Part shown: in pieces, positions 4,163 to 16,422 of the stretch
How the letters are laid out: each line of letters begins with the position of its first letter
How positions within the stretch are numbered: position 1 is the first letter of the stretch
IMG/VR virus record: IMGVR_UViG_3300008261_000144
Coordinates: 1 to 25,334 of that record
Length of the DNA: 25,334 nt
Direction: 5' to 3' (one strand)
DNA from: a virus
Taxonomy: Duplodnaviria; Caudoviricetes
Made by a program: the position numbers and the translations under genes
Notes under the pieces: model-generated
The model's database searches: none
Told to the model about the DNA's origin: nothing
What the model saw: the letters and a program-made list of their open reading frames with translations, nothing else

Positions 4163-4326
4163 TGGTTACAGTTGAAGAAATGATAGCTCTCGTACAGGAC
4201 TACATCTACGAGAAGAAAAAAGTTAGGGTGGCTATCCATCTAAGATACCACCCTTTCTTTATACATTCAGATCTTAGCAAACTTAACTATTGTTATGGTA
4301 TTGCTCTTGATTACTTTAAAATTTGA
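4162..4326 (+). CDS. Small hypothetical protein, 54 aa (not in ORF track)
   Basis: TAATG stop/start coupling at 4160-4164; MVTVEEMIALVQDYIYEKKKVRVAIHLRYHPFFIHSDLSKLNYCYGIALDYFKI*. Confidence 0.7.
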   Translation: MVTVEEMIALVQDYIYEKKKVRVAIHLRYHPFFIHSDLSKLNYCYGIALDYFKI

Positions 4327-7300
4327 TCAACTGTTTGACCAGCTTTAATTCTATCTATATCTGACAATGTTGGCTGACTTATAGTCTTTAATAGCTTAAC
4401 ATATTCCTTCCCTTGAGATTCTGTCAGACCTCCATTTCTATCAATAAAATCTAATTCATCTATAGCTGTACTAGCTTCTTTTTTCTGTTTTATCAAATCT
4501 GATTCCCATCCAGAAACTTTTCTTCCTATCTCTTTTTCAACGTCAGTAATTCTATTATACTGATTCTCTGTTATACCTCTCTTCTTAACTCTATTAACAA
4601 CATTTCTAGATATCTGACCAACATCTTTTGGTAATACTCCCATAGAATATAATACCATTGGAGCAATTGTGTAACCAACTATCTTACGATCTTTTTCATT
4701 AATGTATTTTTTAGATATACGTCCTTGATACTCATCTTCAAATTCACCAGTTGTAGCTAATTTAGATATATCAATCAGTTCTTTATAAGTATCTCCAGCA
4801 ATTCCAATCATACCATATTTACGACCATTAAAGTCATCTGTAAATACCTGATATTCGCTTTCCTTTTTGAGATTTTCAATGAATGCTTCTTTCTCTCTAT
4901 CATTCATTTCTTCCTTACCATTAAGAACGAGGGCTTTGTTTTTATCTTCAACTGCTTTTTTAATATCAGCTTCATCAAGCATTGGTATTTCAGCAAGAGC
5001 TTTATTCAATCCATAAGTAACTAAATCATCAGTAATTGGAAGAGGTGAAACAATATCATTAACGATACTCTTTATTGGGTATTTTGTAGCGTTAATCATT
5101 TTTTTCTTTTTTGCTTCTTCATCTTCATCATCTCCCATTAATGATGCAGCTATTATATCGTACAATCTTCTTATACCAAAACCAATCAATTGGTATGTAG
5201 CTAGCTCGACTGATAATCCACCAAGAGATCTTGCAGCTGTTATCTTATCTTCTGTTGTAGCTGTCTTACTATACAATGTTGTGATGTCATTATACATTCT
5301 TGCCTTTTGGTTTAAGATAAATGATGCAAATGGAAGCACAACTTTTCTAGCTATTTTTCTAAATGAATCTTCGCTAGCTAAGAACTCACCTGCTAACATT
5401 GGATCAGATATGTTCTGCTGTCTATCAACCATCATCTGAGCGTAGTTAACTGCATCCATATCGGCTTCATGTGTATTCCAATCTATATCTGTAGATATTC
5501 CTCTATTTTTTAAATCTTGTATATAGTATGAAATAAATGATGATCGAGCAACCCAAACATCTGGTTTAGATAAGAATTGTTTTAAATACCATTGATTTAA
5601 TTTTGCAACATTCTTTAATGCATTGTCAAATGTTTCTCCTTTCTTATCTATTCTACTATCAATTGATTCAACTGTTGATTGTGATTCAAGACCTCGATTT
5701 GAAATTGGAGCACCAGTTCTATTAATCCAATCATTCATTTCTGAATTTACAGTTATAAATCTACCTGCATTTATAACAGTGTTAGCGATTACAGGAACAG
5801 TTTGCATTACGGCTTGATTTAAACCACCCAATGCTTTTCCAACACCTATAGATGTTATAAAGTTTGTGAGTTTATTTACTGAGTCCCATGTATCTCTCGG
5901 TGCAATTTTCTTTCCTTTTGCCCTTCTGATATAATTGTTAATTCTTCTTGTTATAAGAACTCTGTCGTCAGATTCAGTAAATAATTTTTTAAATCCTTTT
6001 GAGTTAACAAAACCATCAACTTGTCTGATAGCACTTGCTGTATTTATATCAACTAATGCGGCTTGAAGTGAATTTGAGTTATTTGTATCAAAATCAAGAC
6101 TAACATATCTATCATCAGGAATAACTTTTGGTCTTGTTGTTTCCATCAATACTCCAGTCTTATTTTTATCTGTATAATCAATACTAATAGAGAAAGCTCC
6201 ATTTCTTTCAATTAAATCTGAATCAAATTGAACTGATTCACCTGATAATTTTTTATACCTATCTGGAGTATAATTTAAATCACTTCCGAGTTGTGTGTTA
6301 TAAACTGACAAGCTTATATCTGATAATTCTTTATAGCTTTTAGCCCATTGATTAATCCACCAATTAACAGCTTCTCTATTACTTTTGCTAGCACTAGAAT
6401 TAATTACATCAATATCACCTTCATTAACATTAAGTTTGTCGAAGATCTCTTGATACATTTCTCCCATTTTCACTTCTTTTGAATCTCCATTTTCAATCAA
6501 AGTTTGGATACTTTGCTTAATCATATCAATTCTTCTATTCAACTCAGCTTTCATTTCAGCTTCTGTTCCAATAAGATTTCTATTTAAGAATGCAAGCATA
6601 CCTCTTTCGTATACATTTTTAGCATCCATAAAACCTTTTGAATTATAAAAATCTTGTTTTGAATAATCGTCAAGTATTTTATTGTGTTGATTATTTGCTT
6701 TATTTACACCATTAATTAATTTTGATAGACCTGCCATCTCCATAATTTTTGTAGCATTTCTAACACCATTAAACAGTTTTTCCATTAATAATGGAAGAGA
6801 ATAAAGTTCGTCACTATAGAATCTACCTATTGTTTTATTTAATAATAATTTAATAGGTCTAGCCTTAATGCCTTTGTTAACTAATTTGTTAACATTTTTA
6901 ACCCCCTCATAGTTACTAACAACTGCTTCAAGTCCACTTGTTATATTGTTATTTAAGAAGTTATCTATTGCCTCAACAACCTTTATAGCATCCCTTACTG
7001 ACATATCAGCTATGTCTATATCCATAACTTTTTTCATCAGTTCAATGGCATTGTTATCGATATCCAACTCTTCCCCAGTAAATGGATCAATTTTTGTTCT
7101 AACAATCGTTTCAAGTATTGGCTTCATTAAGTTTAATTTGCCATCTAGGAATGACTTGATATATCTTTCTTTTTCAACTGAATCCATTTTGGTAGTAGGA
7201 TCATTCAAAGAATTTATTATATCTTGCATTTCTTTCAATGACATATCTTTCGATATAACACCATCAGAAACTAATGAATTATAAACAGCAAGTATCTCGT

Positions 7301-10300
7301 CTTTGAGAACATTTTCCTGTCTTTTAATCTCATTATTTGTGTATTCAGAAACCTCAGCAATATTTGCAGCTTCCTTCATTACTACATCAAGTCCTTTTAC
7401 TCGTGATGGTTTAACAGCATTTACAACTTTTTCAGCCATTGCAATATATGCATCAATGTCCTCAACCATTGACGGATCAATTTTTGCAAAATCTTTAGCC
7501 ATACCAACCACTTCAGCTTGGTTTTCAGTTTTTAATGCCTTACGTATTGCCTTTCGTAATTTAAATGCATTATCAAGTCTTTCTTGGTAATCAGCTCTGT
7601 CAAATACTTTAGAAGCATAGTCAACAAATCGCTCAACCAATACTGGATTATCTAAGTTAAGATTGCTAATTCTTTTAATTATAACACCAGCTTGAGCAGC
7701 CTTTATTTTGCCAGTCTTAACCATACTACTAATAGCAGCAGCAAGAGATTTTCTCTTAGTATTCAAATCACCCTTAGCTTCACGAGCAGCTTTTGCCTCT
7801 AGTCTAATTTGGTCCTTAAGTGCTGACATCTCATTAACTGAAACCTGTTTTGCTTTAGGTTTACCTAATACCTTAGCAACTGATGGAGCTTTCTTAAGTT
7901 TTTCACCAAAGAATAATTTTAATTCTCTCTCAGCATTTTCTCTTTGTGTATCATCAGTAGTCTTATACCAGTCTGACTTTCTTAAATCATTTAATGCAGC
8001 ATCTACACCTTGCTTATGTGGATTACCTCTTTGCTCTACTGATAGCGTATATTTATCTTTTGCTTTTTGAATTGCTTCTTGTTTTTGTATACTAGATTTC
8101 TGCTTTTTAATAGATCTTCTTTTCTCAGGTTTATAAGATAATATTTCTTGATATTCATCTTTAATACTTTTTGGTAAATCTGAATTCATTATCATATCAG
8201 TTATCTGATCTTGAGTCATTTTGCTTGACTCTTCTTGAATTCTATATAGATCATCATATTTTCCTTCAGAATTTCTTATTTTATAAATCTTATCATATAA
8301 ATCATTGATTTTTTTACTTTTTGATTCAGGTATAACAGATACAAATCCTTTTTCAGTATTGCTTATATATTTTTCATCAAATGGTTTTACAATTCTACTA
8401 CCTTCTGTAATTTCAACATCATCAGGTTTGTATTCTTGAACTGTCTGTGCCCTTGTTCTATCTCCCCATTGTGCAACTGTCATACCATAGCCATTTTCAT
8501 CTGCTATTTTAGTTATATAAGCTAATTGGTCATTAGGTGTAAATGCTAATCCAGGAAATTCCTCATTAAATCTTTTTTCTGCTTCATCTATTAATTTTAA
8601 TGGATCTGAATTAAAGTCATAAACTTCATCTTTTGGTATTTTTACAATATATCTTGATGGACCAGTAACCATTCTTTCACCATCGGATGGTCTAGTGTAA
8701 TACATTGCAACACCACCAACTCTTCCGATGGCAGATCCTTCTGTTGAACTTGTTTTTAGGCTAGCTCCAGAACTTCTTTTTATTACATCATAATTTTTTT
8801 CACCTATATGGAAAAATACAAAATTACCTTTGTCATCTTCTGTAAGATTAGCATAATTAGAAGAATTTTCTGGAGTAATTTTTTGTTTTTTAACTTTACG
8901 AATTCCCATTCCATAAGGTGCAACAACTTGTTGTTGTTGTACTCTAGAAATATCTTCTTGATATTTTGATCTTATATCTTCTGGAAGTATGTCGTAAGAA
9001 TTTATAATAACATCTGGAACTCCAACTACTTCGCCAATTATATTATTTTCATATGTAGAATGATTTGATTTACCACCTATAGATTCTGGTTTTAAAACCA
9101 ACATTATATCTCCAATCTCAAAATTATTATCTCTATAAAAATCGTCTCTTAATGAATCATAATCAACAAATGCATTATAAGACTCTAATAATTTTTTTGT
9201 TTTAGTTGATTTTTTTTCTTGCTCTGATATAGCTATTAAAAATTGTTTTCTGTCAGAACCATTAAATAAATCATTATAGTTATTATATTTTTCTAATATT
9301 GTTTTTATATCTTTTGTAGGATTAGATTCTAAAATTGATGATTTAAATTTATTAAATTCAATAGATTGCTCTATTCTATTTTTAACAAAATTAGAAACAG
9401 TCCTATTAAACAATTTAGATTTCTGAGGAGATCCACTTATTATAAATATATAATCACTATCCTTTATTTTATTATCAAGCGTTTTTAAGTTTACTCCTGA
9501 TGCCCATATAATATTTTTATTTCTATTTTCTGGATCTAATGCAAATGACGGGCCTGCATCTAAATAATGTTTACCATTTATAATATTATCATCAACAAAA
9601 CCTCTTCCTAATTGATCAGCAACCCAAAACCAAACATTCTGATTTTTGTTTGCAATATCTTCTATTAGTAATCTTAAATCAATTAAATCTGATTTTTTTA
9701 CATAAGAAAGATTATATTTATCTTTTACCTCTACTTGTTTTTTAACTTTTTCAGTAGGAATAATTTTAGATTGTATACCTTCAGTAACTATATTTTGTCC
9801 AGTACTAATTCCTTTTGTTAAACTGTTTATAAAGTCAACAGCATTTTTAGCATTTGCTGCTGAAGAAAATATAGTTGGTAAACCAAGTTTTTTAGCTAAC
9901 TTATTAATTAAATTTTTAAATTGTTGGAATTTAGTTGTAGTTAACTCTTGTTGAGCTTCAGCCATAATTCCACCTAGTTCAGCTAAATATTCTTCAGCTT
10001 GTTCCGATCCGTCATAATTAGAAGTAAAACTATCTAATCTTTGTTTTAATCCCTTATCTGATATAACTGATTTTAGACCATTAGCTAAATCAATCATTGC
10101 TCCTGACTCAATACCTTTAACAGTAAGAGCATGATGCATCGCTTCATGCAACATTGTTACAACATCAGCACCATTTTCTAAATTTATATGAATCTCGCCA
10201 TCAACATAAGCACCTCTATCACCCTCATTTGATTTTTCACCTATACCTTGATCAAAATCTTGAGTTGTATTATGAATATAAATTTTAACCCCAGGTAATG

Positions 10301-13300
10301 CTTTCATTGCTAACTTAGCAGCAGTAAAAATTTTCTGAGCTATAGGTGTAGTTTGTTGAGATCTTAATTGTTCAACATTTTCTTCAGTAACTAAATTTTG
10401 TTGTGTTACTTCTGATCCTTTTGTTGTGTAAGATTGGTTTCGTTCTTTGGCTTTTTGTATGACATCACGAATGCTTTCCCATCTGCCTTGCTGTACTGCA
10501 TTTCTTTCAATCTGTTCAAGGATTTCTGACCTTCTGATAGAATCGATGAATTCTGATTGGACTGCTGATTTTGATTCTGAAGTGATTGTTCCGCCATATT
10601 CTAAATATTTATCTACAAATGTAGCATATTTTTCGTCAAAATTACTAACTGGATAGTCAAAAATATTAAAAAACATTATTTTATTTCCAGACATAGTAAA
10701 TCCATCTTGACTAAATCCTGCATCCTCAGCAGCTTTTAATGCTGCTTCTTGATTATCAATACCAATATCAAACCTATCAGCATTATGTTCATTTGTTTGT
10801 GGATCAACAGTTCTACCAGCAATTGTTGAATCTTGAACTTCTGGAGCTATCGCACCATAAACAGCAGCAAAATCTACAATGCTATTCCAATCTCCTGTTA
10901 CGTTTACAACTGTAGATACTTCAGATGTTCCTTCATATCCACCAATTGTATCTTCAATATTGTCAACTTGTATACCAAATCTTTGAGCAGTATCAGACAT
11001 ATCTTTTTTATAGTTCTGATACATTTCAGATTGTCTTATTGACTCAGCCTCTTGAACATTTGTAACCTTGGTATCAAATAAAGGAGCAATATTTATTTGT
11101 GCTGTTATTTGCTCTTTTTTACCTTCTTCGGCAGCGACTTTAGGTTCTGCTTGGGGTTCTCCTTGCGCCATTTCTCCGCCAACTGCGGTTTCTGGCTGTA
11201 CAGGAATTTCACCTGCTGTTTCGACTTGAACGGCATTTTCACTTATTGTTTTTAGTTCATTATTAATCTCATTAATCCTATTTGATATGGGAGTAACAAG
11301 AGCAGGGTCTTTCCCTTCCATTTGCTTACGCAAATTTTCTCTTTCGTTTATTAATTTAAAAGATGTATATCTATCATCATTTGATAAATTATCTGGTATT
11401 TGTCTTAGGACACCTTCAGATTCTTTCAATGAATTAAGTTCTGCCTGTCCTTGATCTTTCGTTATTTCACCTGATAAAATTCTATCTTTTATATTGAGAA
11501 CAAATAAATCTTTAATGTCTTTATTGTTTATAGTATTCTCAATATTGCTTAATTGATATTTATCTAACTGCTGCTTTGCAGTTAATGTAGCTTGAGTAAT
11601 TGATTGCATTCCAGCACCACCCAACAAACCAAGTAACCCAGCTTTGTTTGCTCTTTCAAATACTTCACCAAATGTTTTTGGATTTTCAAAGTATTTCTTT
11701 CCTTTTACTTGATTTAATAATTCTTTAGCACCTATTTCAGTTAGCTCTTGACCTGCCTCAGTAGAATATTCTATTAAACCAGCACCAGTGATTTTTAATA
11801 CTTTATTTGCTATTAATCCTTTTATTTCTTTTTCTACAGCATTATCAATCATCTCTGCTGTTGCATCGCTAGCTAGATTTTTTAGTGATTTAGAAAAAAC
11901 ATAATTTATTATCTTGTTATTTACTGGAGACTTGCTAAACATTTTAGTTAATCCGTACTTCTCTAGCAATGAAGTAATAGCTCCTACAGATCCAGCAAGT
12001 AGCATCTTTTCACCTTCAGATACATCTTTAAATTCAGGACCATTCATTTGATCTCTAAAATTTGTATAAGAAGATGCATATAATCCAAGTGTAGATCCAA
12101 CAGGACCACCAGTCATAGCACCTGCTAATGCTGCACCTCCAGAGTTAGCTAAACCAAAAACAACTTGCTCAAATGCATTTCTTTTTTCAGATGATAAGTA
12201 TTCTTCACTAAAAGATTCAGGTGCAAATTGAGATGTTATAATTCCCTTTGCAGATCCTCTTGCATATTCATCTCCTTCAACAATAATTCTAGCTGCTTGC
12301 TCAAAACCTTGGACAAATGAAAACGCAGTTCCTGATAAAATATTTCCCCTTTCTGATTCAACTATAAAAGCATTACCTGCTATATTTTTTACATCAGATT
12401 GCTCATTAGATATGTTTCTGTAGTCGTCTTTAAGTGACTTTATATTGTTATCAATTTCTTCCTTTCTTTTATTTATTTTAGGTAGGTAGTTGACATTATA
12501 ATCTTCTTCTGTTATTAAACCTTTTTTAAATGACTCATTTACGTCTTGCTCATATTTATTTAATTCAGAAGCTTCTCTTTTTATATCTTCTTTCTTTAAA
12601 ATAGTTTTAGTTATATTGTCATTTATTCTGTCTATTTCATATTTATCAAAAGCAGCAGCTGATCTATACTTATCTTTTGACATATAGTCAAGCTTCTTCT
12701 CTCTTTCTTTATCAAGTTGAGGTAACAACTCATCAAGTTCTTTTTGAAGAAATATTACATTGTATGGATTTGTTTTCTTTTCAGATTCAATTCTATCTCT
12801 TAGATCATTTACTTGTTTTTGTTTTTTGATGTACTCATCATTAACTATATTTACTTCTAAGAAACCCTTAAGTAATTTTGCTTCTTCGTTATCTCTATCA
12901 GTTGTCCAGTTGTCAAGATTAATAAATTTACTTTCGCCAGTTACATTATTTTTAATCTTTATACCATCATAACCTCTTCCAGCAGGTTCTATTTCAAGGT
13001 ATTCGTATTTCTTTAACTTACCTTGTAATTTTGATATTACCTCATCTTCGTTTGAACCTACTAAGTCAGTAGTAACAGTATTTAATATATCGTTGAGATC
13101 ATTTTCTTTTTGAACTTTCTCAACATCTTCTTGATATTTACCACTTTTAACATATTCAAAGTGAGCCTTCTCAAATTCTTTCTCTTGTTCTTTATCAGCT
13201 ATATTAAATAATTTACCATCAGCAATAGCTGGTTTAAATTGTTTTAATTCTGGAGCTTTTTTAGCTATTTCTTTTTGCCTTAACTCTTCTTCTTTTTTTA

Positions 13301-13844
13301 CTTTTTCTGGAGTTATATTATAAGCTTTTTCAATTTGTTTTTGATTAGCTAATTCATAGTTTGGTTGTACTGGATTGCCGTTAATATCAGCAATCATCTT
13401 TGCATTTTTATTTAGGTAGTCATATCTATACTTGACATTTCCAGATTTTATTTCTTTATAATCGCCAGCACCTGTTACATCTTTATACCAAACACCTGAA
13501 ACTTTTTTATAGTTTTGATTATTTTCTGGATTTGAATAAATACCATCATCTGGAGATGAATATTCCGAACGCTTCTTTCGAACCATTTCTTGTGTAACCG
13601 ATGAAACAGCTCCATTTTTTGGTGTTGATTGTGAAACCTCTTTTTTTTTTACTAAACCTAATCGATTTACAAAAACATTATAATCTTTAGGAGCATCAAA
13701 ACCATTATTCAATAAATATGAGTGATATTTTTTAGCGTTATTCTCATCGCTTAAAGCGTTAGCAAATGCATCATAATTTGGTGCAACATCAGCATTATTT
13801 GCTTTTAAATAATCGTAATACTTCTTTAAATTATCGTTAGGCAT
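4311..13844 (-). CDS. Giant polyvalent internal virion/DNA-ejection protein (3177 aa) with zincin metallopeptidase and ART-like domains
   Basis: Last gene of the ejection cluster; Gly/Ala hydrophobic segments near 11600-12170; HEAMHH (10131-10148) plus downstream EEYLAE; ART-like VFFH...AMYYT...YIVKIP (about 8600-8830); helical C-terminal region. Confidence 0.8.
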   Translation of the reverse strand: MPNDNLKKYYDYLKANNADVAPNYDAFANALSDENNAKKYHSYLLNNGFDAPKDYNVFVNRLGLVKKKEVSQSTPKNGAVSSVTQEMVRKKRSEYSSPDDGIYSNPENNQNYKKVSGVWYKDVTGAGDYKEIKSGNVKYRYDYLNKNAKMIADINGNPVQPNYELANQKQIEKAYNITPEKVKKEEELRQKEIAKKAPELKQFKPAIADGKLFNIADKEQEKEFEKAHFEYVKSGKYQEDVEKVQKENDLNDILNTVTTDLVGSNEDEVISKLQGKLKKYEYLEIEPAGRGYDGIKIKNNVTGESKFINLDNWTTDRDNEEAKLLKGFLEVNIVNDEYIKKQKQVNDLRDRIESEKKTNPYNVIFLQKELDELLPQLDKEREKKLDYMSKDKYRSAAAFDKYEIDRINDNITKTILKKEDIKREASELNKYEQDVNESFKKGLITEEDYNVNYLPKINKRKEEIDNNIKSLKDDYRNISNEQSDVKNIAGNAFIVESERGNILSGTAFSFVQGFEQAARIIVEGDEYARGSAKGIITSQFAPESFSEEYLSSEKRNAFEQVVFGLANSGGAALAGAMTGGPVGSTLGLYASSYTNFRDQMNGPEFKDVSEGEKMLLAGSVGAITSLLEKYGLTKMFSKSPVNNKIINYVFSKSLKNLASDATAEMIDNAVEKEIKGLIANKVLKITGAGLIEYSTEAGQELTEIGAKELLNQVKGKKYFENPKTFGEVFERANKAGLLGLLGGAGMQSITQATLTAKQQLDKYQLSNIENTINNKDIKDLFVLNIKDRILSGEITKDQGQAELNSLKESEGVLRQIPDNLSNDDRYTSFKLINERENLRKQMEGKDPALVTPISNRINEINNELKTISENAVQVETAGEIPVQPETAVGGEMAQGEPQAEPKVAAEEGKKEQITAQINIAPLFDTKVTNVQEAESIRQSEMYQNYKKDMSDTAQRFGIQVDNIEDTIGGYEGTSEVSTVVNVTGDWNSIVDFAAVYGAIAPEVQDSTIAGRTVDPQTNEHNADRFDIGIDNQEAALKAAEDAGFSQDGFTMSGNKIMFFNIFDYPVSNFDEKYATFVDKYLEYGGTITSESKSAVQSEFIDSIRRSEILEQIERNAVQQGRWESIRDVIQKAKERNQSYTTKGSEVTQQNLVTEENVEQLRSQQTTPIAQKIFTAAKLAMKALPGVKIYIHNTTQDFDQGIGEKSNEGDRGAYVDGEIHINLENGADVVTMLHEAMHHALTVKGIESGAMIDLANGLKSVISDKGLKQRLDSFTSNYDGSEQAEEYLAELGGIMAEAQQELTTTKFQQFKNLINKLAKKLGLPTIFSSAANAKNAVDFINSLTKGISTGQNIVTEGIQSKIIPTEKVKKQVEVKDKYNLSYVKKSDLIDLRLLIEDIANKNQNVWFWVADQLGRGFVDDNIINGKHYLDAGPSFALDPENRNKNIIWASGVNLKTLDNKIKDSDYIFIISGSPQKSKLFNRTVSNFVKNRIEQSIEFNKFKSSILESNPTKDIKTILEKYNNYNDLFNGSDRKQFLIAISEQEKKSTKTKKLLESYNAFVDYDSLRDDFYRDNNFEIGDIMLVLKPESIGGKSNHSTYENNIIGEVVGVPDVIINSYDILPEDIRSKYQEDISRVQQQQVVAPYGMGIRKVKKQKITPENSSNYANLTEDDKGNFVFFHIGEKNYDVIKRSSGASLKTSSTEGSAIGRVGGVAMYYTRPSDGERMVTGPSRYIVKIPKDEVYDFNSDPLKLIDEAEKRFNEEFPGLAFTPNDQLAYITKIADENGYGMTVAQWGDRTRAQTVQEYKPDDVEITEGSRIVKPFDEKYISNTEKGFVSVIPESKSKKINDLYDKIYKIRNSEGKYDDLYRIQEESSKMTQDQITDMIMNSDLPKSIKDEYQEILSYKPEKRRSIKKQKSSIQKQEAIQKAKDKYTLSVEQRGNPHKQGVDAALNDLRKSDWYKTTDDTQRENAERELKLFFGEKLKKAPSVAKVLGKPKAKQVSVNEMSALKDQIRLEAKAAREAKGDLNTKRKSLAAAISSMVKTGKIKAAQAGVIIKRISNLNLDNPVLVERFVDYASKVFDRADYQERLDNAFKLRKAIRKALKTENQAEVVGMAKDFAKIDPSMVEDIDAYIAMAEKVVNAVKPSRVKGLDVVMKEAANIAEVSEYTNNEIKRQENVLKDEILAVYNSLVSDGVISKDMSLKEMQDIINSLNDPTTKMDSVEKERYIKSFLDGKLNLMKPILETIVRTKIDPFTGEELDIDNNAIELMKKVMDIDIADMSVRDAIKVVEAIDNFLNNNITSGLEAVVSNYEGVKNVNKLVNKGIKARPIKLLLNKTIGRFYSDELYSLPLLMEKLFNGVRNATKIMEMAGLSKLINGVNKANNQHNKILDDYSKQDFYNSKGFMDAKNVYERGMLAFLNRNLIGTEAEMKAELNRRIDMIKQSIQTLIENGDSKEVKMGEMYQEIFDKLNVNEGDIDVINSSASKSNREAVNWWINQWAKSYKELSDISLSVYNTQLGSDLNYTPDRYKKLSGESVQFDSDLIERNGAFSISIDYTDKNKTGVLMETTRPKVIPDDRYVSLDFDTNNSNSLQAALVDINTASAIRQVDGFVNSKGFKKLFTESDDRVLITRRINNYIRRAKGKKIAPRDTWDSVNKLTNFITSIGVGKALGGLNQAVMQTVPVIANTVINAGRFITVNSEMNDWINRTGAPISNRGLESQSTVESIDSRIDKKGETFDNALKNVAKLNQWYLKQFLSKPDVWVARSSFISYYIQDLKNRGISTDIDWNTHEADMDAVNYAQMMVDRQQNISDPMLAGEFLASEDSFRKIARKVVLPFASFILNQKARMYNDITTLYSKTATTEDKITAARSLGGLSVELATYQLIGFGIRRLYDIIAASLMGDDEDEEAKKKKMINATKYPIKSIVNDIVSPLPITDDLVTYGLNKALAEIPMLDEADIKKAVEDKNKALVLNGKEEMNDREKEAFIENLKKESEYQVFTDDFNGRKYGMIGIAGDTYKELIDISKLATTGEFEDEYQGRISKKYINEKDRKIVGYTIAPMVLYSMGVLPKDVGQISRNVVNRVKKRGITENQYNRITDVEKEIGRKVSGWESDLIKQKKEASTAIDELDFIDRNGGLTESQGKEYVKLLKTISQPTLSDIDRIKAGQTVDQILK
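8883..8897. repeat. 15-bp direct repeat copy 1 (TTGTTTTTTAACTTT; encodes KVKKQ on - strand)
   Basis: Identical to 9735-9749; 852-bp in-frame spacing. Confidence 0.6.
9735..9749. repeat. 15-bp direct repeat copy 2 (encodes KVKKQ)
   Basis: Identical to 8883-8897. Confidence 0.6.
10406..10597 (-). CDS. Candidate nested +1-frame ORF (63 aa) inside the giant gene
   Basis: Same-strand ATG within TAT-GGC, A-rich leader with A at -3, 63 open codons, located in an inter-domain linker. Confidence 0.35.
   Translation of the reverse strand: MAEQSLQNQNQQSNQNSSILSEGQKSLNRLKEMQYSKADGKAFVMSYKKPKNETNLTQQKDQK
11105..11236 (-). CDS. Nested (overprinted) +1-frame small basic protein, 43 aa, MPFKS family
   Basis: Hand-translated MPFKSKQQVKFLYSQKPQLAEKWRKENPKQNLKSLPKKVKKSK*; leader AAAAACAATAAGTGAAA-ATG; local GC-rich codon anomaly; resembles, from recall, standalone MPFKSxxQ small phage proteins. 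Confidence 0.7.
   Translation of the reverse strand: MPFKSKQQVKFLYSQKPQLAEKWRKENPKQNLKSLPKKVKKSK
13546..13650 (-). other. Candidate slippage/-1 frameshift site (A10) with 31-codon alternative-frame tail
   Basis: GTA AAA AAA AAA GAG at codons 65-69; -1 frame reads RGFTINTKKWSCFIGYTRNGSKEAFGIFISR* ending at TGA 13548-13546. Confidence 0.45.
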
Positions 13845-13860
13845 GTTTATATATTTTTAA

Positions 13861-15327
13861 TTACCACTGAATACCAGAACTTCCTTTTTTATTGCTACTT
13901 GATTGACCTGATTTAGCCATTTTCCTAGCATTTTCCCAATTTAATGATACTTCTGCTGGTTCTCCATTATATACAAATTGAGCTAAATCTTTTGGTGTCT
14001 TAGCAAAAAAGACAACATCTCTACCCTTAGAAACTTCAATTCCTCCATTCTTAGGTGTATATGTATAACCTTGTTTTAAACCACCAAAATCAGGTCCACT
14101 AGATGATTTTACCCAACTACCACTTGATATTGTTGCATCAGGATCAGCACCCCAAGCTCTTAATGTGGCTTTATATCCAGCTATCAAAGCTGCATTTTCT
14201 TGACTTTTATCTTCGTTTTTTCGGCCTCCGCCTCCACCTCCACCTCCGCCTCCTCTATCAGGCTCATCTAGTTCAACCTTTCTTTCTAGTCTTGAGTCAA
14301 TAGCGTCCAATACAGTTTGCTTTGCATCTTCAATTTGTTTATTTGTCAAATTTGGCTGATAAACACCTTGATCATCTTGAGCAAGCAATATAAACTTTTC
14401 TTTCTCAGATTCAATAAACTTATCTAAAGCATAACCATCTAAAGCAGGTTTTCCAAGTTGTTTGTTAAGTTCATTTTCTTTAGATACTCTGTCTTGAAGT
14501 TTTGAATTTAAATCATCATTATTATAATAAAAATCGTAATTTCCGTCAGTATTGTCTTTTAGAATACTAGTTATAGCTCTAGGATTGCTTAATATACCAT
14601 TAGCCAAATCAAGTCTTGCTCTTTGTATAGCAGGATTTTGCAATGCGTCTGTTATAGTCTTATTACCTAATTCAATAGTCCAATCTTCCCAACCTTTTGT
14701 TTTCTCGTCGACAATAGTTGATAAATCAACTTTATTATCAATCATATTTCCTGGTTGAGATATAGATCTTAAATCCATTATAGTAGATGGGTCAAATAAA
14801 CCATCTTGACCTAGTTGACCAATGATAAAGTTACCATTGTTAGGATCTACTTGAGTTGCTTTATTTCTTAAATCTCCTAATTGAGAGAGTCTATTGTTCA
14901 GTTCTAACTCAAGACCTGAGCCTATACCTTCCTGTTGTCTTTTTAATGCTTCTTGCATTTGTTGGTCATAACTTTTTGCAGTATTAGCAAATGTGGACCA
15001 GCTATCCATCAAGTTGTTTATTCTATTTTTATACTCAAGAGGTGTAATTTGACCAGCTTTTAATAAACGATTCCATTCCATCATTGATTCTCTACCTTGA
15101 TTTGATCCAGATAGAATCAATTGATTTAATGTCTGACTTTTACCTAGTTCTGTATTTTGCAATATTTTACTATTATCATATTGCAATTTATCAAGTAGTT
15201 GTTTTTCAGCTTCTCTTGCAGCACCTATACCTTGTATAGTAGTAACTAAACCACCAGTAAGCTTTGCCCAATCTATTGGATTACTTGCTGGTATAAATCC
15301 TGTATATTCGTTGTATCTATTTGGCAT
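13861..15327 (-). CDS. Internal virion/ejection protein (488 aa) with Gly10 linker
   Basis: Position between the pilot-like and giant genes; helical Q/N/K-rich sequence; ten Gly codons at 14224-14253. Confidence 0.65.
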   Translation of the reverse strand: MPNRYNEYTGFIPASNPIDWAKLTGGLVTTIQGIGAAREAEKQLLDKLQYDNSKILQNTELGKSQTLNQLILSGSNQGRESMMEWNRLLKAGQITPLEYKNRINNLMDSWSTFANTAKSYDQQMQEALKRQQEGIGSGLELELNNRLSQLGDLRNKATQVDPNNGNFIIGQLGQDGLFDPSTIMDLRSISQPGNMIDNKVDLSTIVDEKTKGWEDWTIELGNKTITDALQNPAIQRARLDLANGILSNPRAITSILKDNTDGNYDFYYNNDDLNSKLQDRVSKENELNKQLGKPALDGYALDKFIESEKEKFILLAQDDQGVYQPNLTNKQIEDAKQTVLDAIDSRLERKVELDEPDRGGGGGGGGGGRKNEDKSQENAALIAGYKATLRAWGADPDATISSGSWVKSSSGPDFGGLKQGYTYTPKNGGIEVSKGRDVVFFAKTPKDLAQFVYNGEPAEVSLNWENARKMAKSGQSSSNKKGSSGIQW

Positions 15328-15338
15328 TTTTATTTATT

Positions 15339-16019
15339 TTATTCAGGAAGACCAGTCCACATATTATAATTCTGTGTAGTAGGTTGACCTTGATAAGCCA
15401 TAACACCACTACCAGGTTGTCCTGGTTTAGGTTTATCACCTACATTAAAATTAGTAGTGCTACCTGATTTCTTGTATAAGTTTAATGCGCCTGCTCCACT
15501 AGTTAATGCACTTCCTGCCGAACTAAACATACCTTCAATTGCAGCATTCTTTCTTTCTTCAGCAGCTTGTCTTTCATTTTGAGCACTTTGCATTTCATTT
15601 AATCCAATCATAAGATTACGTTCTTGCTGTCTAGCTTGAATACCTTGTTCTGCCTCAGCTTGTGCCATATCTCTTTGATACTGTGCTTGACCTGCCTGAG
15701 CAGCTAAATTTAAAGCTTGTTCGTTTCCAGCTTGAAGTACATTTCCTACTCCACCAATAACACCCTCAGCACCTGCACCCTGCAATGATTGCATTGCCTG
15801 TGTTGTTGCTTGAGCTTGTGATTGTTGCGCCAATTCAAATCCTAAAGTAGGAACTTGAACTTGCTTGAATGCGTTAAACTCCTTGATGTTTTTTAATTCA
15901 CCTGCCGCTTTAGCTGCCGCCTGTGATGCCGTTTTCATATCTTTATTGGCTTTGATAGCTTGAGCTGCACTCAAACCTAAACCACCTAAAGCTACTATCG
16001 TTCCTGTTACTGCTGCCAT
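15339..16019 (-). CDS. DNA ejection/pilot protein (P22 gp7/T7 gp14 analogue), 226 aa; start re-called at ATG 16019
   Basis: Hydrophobic N-terminus MAAVTGTIVALGGLGLSAA, Ala/Gln-rich coiled coil, Gly/Ala C-terminal segment; synteny. Confidence 0.7.
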   Translation of the reverse strand: MAAVTGTIVALGGLGLSAAQAIKANKDMKTASQAAAKAAGELKNIKEFNAFKQVQVPTLGFELAQQSQAQATTQAMQSLQGAGAEGVIGGVGNVLQAGNEQALNLAAQAGQAQYQRDMAQAEAEQGIQARQQERNLMIGLNEMQSAQNERQAAEERKNAAIEGMFSSAGSALTSGAGALNLYKKSGSTTNFNVGDKPKPGQPGSGVMAYQGQPTTQNYNMWTGLPE

Positions 16020-16020
16020 G

Positions 16021-16422
16021 TTATAATATTTTAACCATTTCTTGACAATTGCTATCTCCTTTAATAAAGCCACAATTGCTATATCTGTCAATTAGACTTT
16101 TACTCTTTAGTGATGTATAAATATATTTAAAATCACCTGCATCTTTAACTAATTCAATCAATACATTTATAAGAAATTCAAGAGCTTCATGCCTATCATT
16201 TTCTTTGTATTGAAAGTTAGATACTATAAATTCAATCCATGCTGCCTTTGAGTTCGTAAAGTAAACAAATCCAGCACATATCTCAACACCATCCTTAGAC
16301 ACCATTACCCCACCTGTACCATTCTCTGGTAACATATCAGCAGGAGGAGGAGTCCATCTCCAATCTCTCCACCACGATGACAATGTCTCATAGTCATTGC
16401 CATTCAATAGTCGAACTTCCAT
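16021..16422 (-). CDS. GNAT-fold protein in virion module (positional analogue of T7 gp13/P22 gp14)
   Basis: VRLL..D start, ICAGFVYF beta strand, YIYT...LIDRYSNCGF C-terminal GNAT pattern; lies between nozzle and ejection genes. Confidence 0.65.
   Translation of the reverse strand: MEVRLLNGNDYETLSSWWRDWRWTPPPADMLPENGTGGVMVSKDGVEICAGFVYFTNSKAAWIEFIVSNFQYKENDRHEALEFLINVLIELVKDAGDFKYIYTSLKSKSLIDRYSNCGFIKGDSNCQEMVKIL

Follow-up and report, generated by a model that had tools for sequence, protein, structure and literature searches.

Does a 43-codon open reading frame lying inside a giant gene of a tailed phage encode a protein of its own and, if so, how did it come to lie there and what might the protein do? 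The window in which this question arises (the whole stretch of DNA analysed, 25,334 nt) has a minus-strand virion module that ends in a gene for a protein of 3177 amino acids (4311..13844, minus strand), made up of a conserved N-terminal module, a mosaic middle and a conserved C-terminal part. Where the conserved N-terminal module ends, at a position that we call the slot, the +1 frame of the same strand holds a small open reading frame (11105..11236, minus strand), which runs from an ATG at 11236 to a TAA at 11105 and starts one base into host codon 870. An earlier note on this DNA had reported this frame as a hidden small basic gene, and its coordinates, strand, frame and translation all proved exact. 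In the host frame, the same DNA (11106..11237, minus strand) is read as an acidic linker of net charge -6 (codons 870-913), which is open yet variable. The predicted small protein is strongly basic (5.2 kDa, net charge +12, pI 10.6), has no cysteine and no hydrophobic signal, and is modelled by AlphaFold as a two-helix hairpin (residues 6-15 and 17-26) followed by an extended basic tail (pLDDT 89). A GTG two codons 5' of the ATG would give a product of 45 amino acids; homologues start at the methionine of the 43-amino-acid form.

The giant gene and its two reading frames

Three minus-strand genes upstream of the giant gene place the window among known phages. A 488-amino-acid gene (13861..15327) matches phrog_35506 (E 1e-7) and occupies the position of phi18:3 gp121, which is confirmed by mass spectrometry; a 225-amino-acid gene (15339..16016) matches the virion structural protein family phrog_13764 (E 2e-8); and a 133-amino-acid gene (16021..16422; phrog_17252) served as a marker that picks relatives irrespective of the nested gene. 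The marker matches genes of Elemovirus, of Cellulophaga phages phi18:3, phi46:3, phi13:2 and phi19:3, and of Gundel and Panino at 34-48%, and several of these matches belong to Pachyviridae; by this measure, the source phage is Elemovirus/Pachyviridae-like. Gundel is podoviral (PMC8776804). The gene order of the window matches that of phi18:3 gp120, gp121 and gp123, all annotated as virion proteins confirmed by mass spectrometry, such that the giant protein is likely to be a virion or ejected protein. In BLAST searches, the giant protein matched Elemovirus gp18 ('structural protein') in two segments and gave no match to phi18:3 gp123, and because of this 'ejection protein' is an inferred name. 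Near-identical DNA is present in freshwater metagenomes. We note that the giant gene is strongly mosaic relative to loci L083-L102, with L087 being 95% alike over residues 1-959, 91% alike over residues 1916-3154 and unrelated in between; that the giant protein has an HExxH motif at about residue 1232; and that the marker gene is inverted relative to its structural neighbours in Gundel (L107, Gundel_1) and phi19:3 (L108).

The length of the small frame is unremarkable, since the giant gene holds five longer stop-free +1 stretches, and with the host peptide held fixed the +1 frame is open with an ATG in 26-30% of random recodings; length and openness are thus uninformative as arguments for a gene. 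The earlier note had also argued from GC-rich codons in the linker. This argument is weak, because the third-position GC of the host frame (0.25 vs 0.158) is matched or exceeded in 329 of 3134 sliding windows, even though all codon positions together reach a GC of 0.50 over 11100-11199, compared with about 0.3 in the surroundings. Hydrophilic +1 frames, however, exceed chance: when the giant gene was shuffled among synonymous codons (150 shuffles, counting hydrophilic +1 ATG frames of 28-95 amino acids), 0.04 such frames per gene were expected, with a maximum of one per shuffle, and two are observed, namely the 43-amino-acid frame and one of 63 amino acids at 10597-10406.

Selection on the small frame is apparent from its variation. 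Across 41 distinct overlaps, entropy at small-frame codon positions 1, 2 and 3 is 0.40, 0.19 and 0.83, and the encoded proteins are 84% identical for the small frame as compared with 55% for the host frame. Per opportunity, substitutions that leave the giant protein unchanged while altering the small one arise at 0.010-0.018 and those of the reverse class at 0.11-0.17, the former being 6-17 times rarer; 34 of the 41 overlaps had been picked by the peptide, so this sample is biased. Among nine sequences picked irrespective of the peptide, the variable columns number 23 at third, 6 at first and 4 at second small-frame positions. An imperfect control, the 26 host codons immediately upstream, has 18/10/16 variable columns by host position and no clear third-position excess. 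Nested copies of a second, unrelated gene that can fill the slot (MPLKK, discussed below) vary in the same manner (30/10/6 and 13/7/3). Within the overlap, it is the host frame that varies and its third positions that are most conserved. Four lake metagenome runs contain many contigs that do not otherwise resemble the window and whose alignment to it is confined to about 11113-11240, and in three further runs this is the sole such alignment island across the whole giant gene. The overlap is also where summed contig depth is highest in each of the seven DNA runs, with aligned contigs having loose ends on both sides; this peak reflects the many otherwise unlike contigs that align there and is not a measure of abundance.

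The host frame is also kept open, since the -1 frame of free-standing relatives is open in only 1 of 45 genes and mostly holds 2-7 stops, and since the Phe3 codon is TTC in 48 of 48 nested copies as compared with TTT in 33 of 45 free ones. We set aside a related count, that of T-ending codons before AA, AG or GA (0/389 in nested copies vs 190/380), because it follows in part from how nested copies are defined, and count only the rarity of free genes with an open -1 frame. The earlier note had proposed checking related linkers for these features: the +1 frame and its start are retained (the ATG in 53 of 53 nested copies) and giant-silent change is suppressed, by the 6- to 17-fold ratio above. 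Its picture of a conserved small basic gene within an acidic linker is likewise supported, with the gene under its own selection and the linker variable. At the level of sequence comparison, we regard it as confirmed that the +1 frame is a genuine, selected, nested gene belonging to a large family.

Relatives, an exchangeable slot and the origin of the nesting

A search with the peptide found 20 close database relatives, and a profile of the family, which we call MPFKS, found 2,844 clusters at 50% identity. Forty of the 80 IMG/VR loci picked by the peptide have the gene nested in the +1 frame of a long host frame and 35 have it free; of the other five, one is in the +2 frame and four overlap an antisense frame. 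The family of standalone phage proteins that the earlier note had mentioned does exist, and searching with the 43-amino-acid peptide recovers its members. The suspicion that annotation would miss such a gene also holds, in that nested copies go unannotated in Elemovirus elemoF and in MW202828; in the elemo phage record NC_055853, the nested ATG is at position 52379. Free copies occur in S-CBS2, P-RSP2, Streptomyces phage FlowerPower, C75C1 and 023Pt, and even these are unannotated in three of the five records (S-CBS2, P-RSP2 and C75C1; L109, L110 and L113). The family profile also reaches distant homologues, 201phi2-1 gp383 and Phabio gp376. The family is absent from all five cultured Pachyviridae-type genomes searched. 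One candidate relative, P0083, was rejected as a spurious repeat match.

The nearest library family of the small protein is phrog_1375, a family of unassigned function of which the window copy is a shorter subtype, with nesting lying outside the family description; the phrog_1375 profile matches the window protein at E 0.018 and free relatives at E 3.6e-4 and 2.7e-3, and does not match the Elemovirus copy. Used at E up to 1, this profile is too loose to detect the family, as it matched 5 of 14 control genomes. Pfam gave no family for the 43-amino-acid protein at E up to 1, DUF3008 (PF11450) included; DUF3008 is a distant lead from Atlas, at a score of 0.85-0.86 on 14-15% of members. Searches of Pfam, PDB sequences and PDB structures (Foldseek) gave no functional match, Foldseek against BFVD matched solely uncharacterised relatives, and the best VIA structure comparison had a Z of 2.1 (rmsd 3.5, 34 residues aligned).

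The giant gene is not the only host. At three loci (L062:4272, L065:4567 and L066:6001), MPFKS is nested in the +1 frame of a different, acidic gene that follows a portal-like gene and precedes the likely capsid gene (located in L062). Based on gene order and phrog_13704, this second host is likely scaffolding-like and the adjoining gene likely encodes the major capsid protein; a sequence search with the latter protein gave no match.

Nor is MPFKS the only occupant of the slot. Fourteen of 17 loci picked by the marker gene reach the slot, with nine having MPFKS and five an unrelated gene, MPLKK, in the same frame. A wider marker profile extended this set to 73 loci, including the earlier 17, of which 25 were dropped for having less than 1100 amino acids of the giant protein. 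A nested gene of one of the two kinds is present in 24 of 25 close relatives (20 MPFKS, four MPLKK). Among 23 distant relatives, two have MPFKS embedded, one overlapped and one free, one has other basic +1 frames only, and 18 have neither family within the DNA retrieved per locus. Given these 18 and the five cultured genomes, the family must be dispensable or replaced in some phages. The MPLKK cassette of L088 and L101 passes the DUF6496 (PF20106) cut-off of 24 bits, with scores of 27.8 and 25.0. DUF6496 (also phrog_2423) resembles MPFKS in being a small basic protein of unassigned role that fills the same +1 slot; it differs in being unrelated in sequence past the first residues and is absent from the window. 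The DUF6496 gene itself is nested in 19 of 36 loci and free or otherwise placed in 17.

The exchange can be located closely. The window and L096 are 86% alike over the 300 bases upstream of the small gene, share 10 of its first 11 bases (11226..11236, minus strand) with L096 carrying the DUF6496 gene, and are 35% alike thereafter; because the likeness drops right after these 11 bases, we place the likely crossover in the shared start. In L011 and L102, a truncated MPLKK start lies at the slot with an intact small gene farther on, and in L151 MPFKS lies at the slot with a 3' remnant of MPLKK behind it. From these junctions, a doubly open cassette is likely to be both mobile and exchanged, with recombination taking place at the first 11 bases. 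Because one slot can take occupants that are unrelated to each other, a generic function could be tested by swapping them. The earlier note's proposal that nesting couples the small gene to the giant gene as its partner is weakened by the existence of a second host gene, by the unrelated occupant and by the lack of the family in cultured Pachyviridae.

Two loci bear on how the nesting arose. In L184 the small gene lies directly behind the stop codon of the giant gene (L184:17768), and in L180 the giant gene runs 17 bases into the small gene, with the two frames offset as they are in the window (L180:18424); the two are 96% alike at the giant 3' end. Lysine-rich DNA read one base earlier yields Glu, Gln and Lys. 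Given the genetic code, and the rarity of free genes with an open -1 frame, read-through into such a gene would produce a tolerable acidic linker once its stops had been recoded. We think that capture probably followed this route: a small gene once lay behind the stop of the giant gene, the giant gene then read on through the -1 frame of the small gene, lost the stops in that reading through recoding, and gained further domains beyond the linker. Since L184 and L180 present separated and overlapped states, the small gene is likely the older frame, engulfed by its host, and the acidic linker the derived reading. Hence the earlier note's idea of a gene internalised into a linker fits, as a gene probably captured rather than born in place, and its term 'overprinted' strictly belongs to the linker. 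Nested subtypes differ among L176, L190, L162 and L062, which suggests more than one capture; a tree of 90 rows by 43 columns is poorly resolved, requiring two changes with a single origin not rejected (p 0.07). L180 and L184 carry another subtype and may represent a parallel event rather than an ancestor of the nesting in the window. The separated, overlapped and embedded states form a natural series that illustrates how nesting of a pre-existing gene may come about.

Proposed role and probable expression of the small protein

Our preferred explanation as a whole, which we hold by a slender balance, is that an old family of small basic proteins has its own start on the giant mRNA and supplies a packaged core protein that binds nucleic acid. 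The small protein would be packed into the head alongside the giant protein, where its two helices and lysine tail would bind packaged DNA and offset its charge; this is a generic job, such that another small basic protein could do the same. That the modelled helices and tail act in this manner seems to us evenly poised. We propose a packaged core protein because of the charge of the protein, its company of basic mini-genes, its placement among head genes and its replacement by an unrelated basic protein. Small basic frames are concentrated near free MPFKS genes, at 0.85 per kb within 1.2 kb as compared with 0.05 per kb farther away (34 of 43 loci). Fusellovirus VP2 (PF25632) and phiX174 J, which are small basic virion core proteins, resemble MPFKS in size and strong positive charge. 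In P0048 the MPFKS module is joined to a VP2-like one (E 0.007), and VP2-like genes adjoin free MPFKS genes in L075 and L082. The 43-amino-acid protein itself gave no sequence or fold match to VP2 or J.

An alternative, which we consider doubtful, is that the small protein is made separately and acts late in the infected cell, on host or phage nucleic acid, ribosomes or RNA polymerase, rather than being packaged. The family spans phages with very different heads, and not every free gene belongs to an obvious head module (L041, L055, L059 and L068 do not), some being placed beside replication or metabolism genes; moreover, 201phi2-1 gp383 has no mass-spectrometry virion note, whereas its neighbour gp382 has one. 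A lysine-rich 5-kDa protein is easily missed by mass spectrometry, with the window copy yielding one tryptic peptide of 7 or more residues. Against a role confined to the infected cell, nested copies lie in head-module genes (the giant gene and the gene upstream of the likely capsid gene), and several free copies sit in head or late modules, often between portal and capsid genes or near terminase.

It is less probable still that the helix pair serves as a handle for head targeting or assembly, with protein (the inner wall of the capsid, a scaffold or the giant protein) rather than DNA as its binding partner. Of the best 150 relatives, 120 have the module at the N-terminus, where in 48 it leads longer proteins with unrelated bodies, and its conserved residues include the non-polar F3, P17, A20, L35 and P36. 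The helix pair may resemble the leaders that target T4 internal proteins to the capsid, and also the coat-binding helix pair of P22 scaffold. However, a single module would need to fit unrelated capsids, and the unrelated DUF6496 protein in the same slot fits a generic charge role better. We note that the longer module-led proteins (P0048, P0077, P0142, P0168, P0129, P0133, P0170 and others) have DUF5661, the VP2-like module or a cupin as partners, and that short recurring segments (ESF..., K-x-AY..LG) often come next after the module; we take these segments to recall head-protease sites and targeting leaders. Whichever role applies, the nested gene opens a way into a family with thousands of members, all small basic phage proteins whose role is unassigned.

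Both the packaged core protein and its alternatives presuppose a separate product. Very probably, ribosomes start at the A-rich internal ATG on the mRNA of the giant gene and make a separate 5-kDa protein. Adenines at -3, -6, -12 and -13 favour start codons in Flavobacterium (PMC6847099). The A-rich stretch 5' of the nested ATG (11237..11250, minus strand), which in the host frame forms the very end of the conserved N-terminal module, is likely its own initiation region. Among 53 nested starts, the frequencies of A at -3, -11 and -13 are 0.81, 0.87 and 0.87, compared with 0.70, 0.74 and 0.62 for 204 real starts and 0.37 for 4325 internal +1 ATGs; the nested starts are homologous, and hence these are not 53 independent tests. 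Ranked against internal +1 ATGs, the window start falls at the 97th percentile; against real starts, it falls at the 21st. Nested starts thus look Bacteroidota-like, and the A-rich Bacteroidota-type leader described in the earlier note is borne out at -3, -11, -13 and -14, with no A at -6 or -12 and the modest rank among real starts tempering it. The one RNA run analysed, X20, covers only 11885-12101 of the window, away from the overlap.

Ribosomal frameshifting might instead give access to the +1 frame, so that a shortened form of the giant protein would end in a basic tail, but we consider this very unlikely. The slot does mark the end of the conserved N-terminal module, and in one contig (P0022) the N-terminal 1033 amino acids of the giant protein are fused in frame to the MPFKS peptide. 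P0022 looks like a deletion or an assembly join, because its cluster mate P0173 is full length, and we have treated it as such. An ATG accompanied by start-like adenines is retained in each of the 53 nested copies; upstream of it the +1 frame is open for 0-24 codons, in one case 0, leaving little room for a frameshift, and inspection by eye revealed no common slippery run. Lastly, the frame might go untranslated and be open as a by-product of a conserved acidic linker or of a DNA or RNA signal; this notion is strongly disfavoured, since the ease with which recodings of the host peptide leave the frame open is outweighed by a host frame that is the more variable of the two with the most conserved third positions, by free-standing genes that encode the same protein, and by a second known family in the same slot.

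Known overlapping genes and further nested frames

The nearest parallel to MPFKS is lambda Rz1 within Rz, a whole small gene in the +1 frame of a larger gene on the same strand, in DNA that encodes a flexible linker of the host protein (PMC6139136). Embedded spanin genes are, like MPFKS, often overlooked by annotation, and stop-loss read-through has been proposed by Kongari et al. as one route to their embedding (PMC6139136). In that survey, no spanin family had embedded members as well as overlapped or separated ones (PMC6139136). MPFKS differs in presenting all three states, in having two host genes and in occupying a swappable slot, and its series thus displays a state that the spanin survey could only hypothesise (PMC6139136). 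MPFKS further differs from Rz/Rz1 in having no lipoprotein signal or cysteine and no lysis context, and its host, a protein of 3177 amino acids in a virion module, is unlike the short membrane-anchored spanin host.

Other overlapping phage genes, such as phiX174 E within D and MS2 L, arose de novo by overprinting. MPFKS resembles these in the dual coding of one stretch. It differs in that the polarity is reversed and the nested frame is widespread (2,844 clusters, with 35 of 80 loci free). No account of MPFKS nesting, DUF3008 or DUF6496 was found in the openly accessible literature searched; the accessible parts of PMC7077304 and PMC8776804 make no mention of nesting.

The second hydrophilic frame of the giant gene, of 63 amino acids (10406..10597, minus strand, +1 frame), lies at the end of a host domain that spans about codons 924-1150. 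Related +1 frames occur at the same domain end in L006, L011 and L017, and probably in L180, L184 and L186, with the host domain being only 26-28% alike in L011 and L017. Variant contigs differ from the window at 19 listed sites, of which 10 are third positions of the 63-amino-acid frame; a search with this frame alone matched only the near-identical contig. Its product may be a partner coupled to the domain, for example an inhibitor of it.

Four Cellulophaga giant genes (L103, L104, L105 and L108) each hold 3-4 unannotated, hydrophilic, mostly basic +1 frames where 0.35-0.61 would be expected, with those of phi18:3 gp123 (L103) lying at codons 173, 561 and 958; the same scan found no such basic frames in the giant genes of Gundel and Panino. 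This brings the count of nested genes or candidates to two in the window, three candidates in cultured phi18:3 and two in Elemovirus. We tentatively suggest, as a possibility that falls short of an even chance, that Bacteroidota podoviruses have giant virion genes of a polycistronic, two-layer kind, in which ejected domains are interspersed with acidic linkers that hide separately started small basic +1 genes, these doubly open cassettes having been engulfed from behind a stop, swapping at a shared start and encoding DNA-condensing core proteins. If true, this would add an unrecognised set of DNA-condensing core proteins to tailed phages. The nested frames point to proteins missing from the annotation of cultured phages, namely Elemovirus and, as candidates, Cellulophaga phi18:3, and the phi18:3 candidates could be tested in existing virion spectra. 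We also observed further recurring families of nested +1 frames at domain boundaries of giant genes, in L001 (elemoF gp18, codon 882) and L012 (codon 947), in L009 and L036, in L095 and L174, and in L083, L087, L090 and L092.
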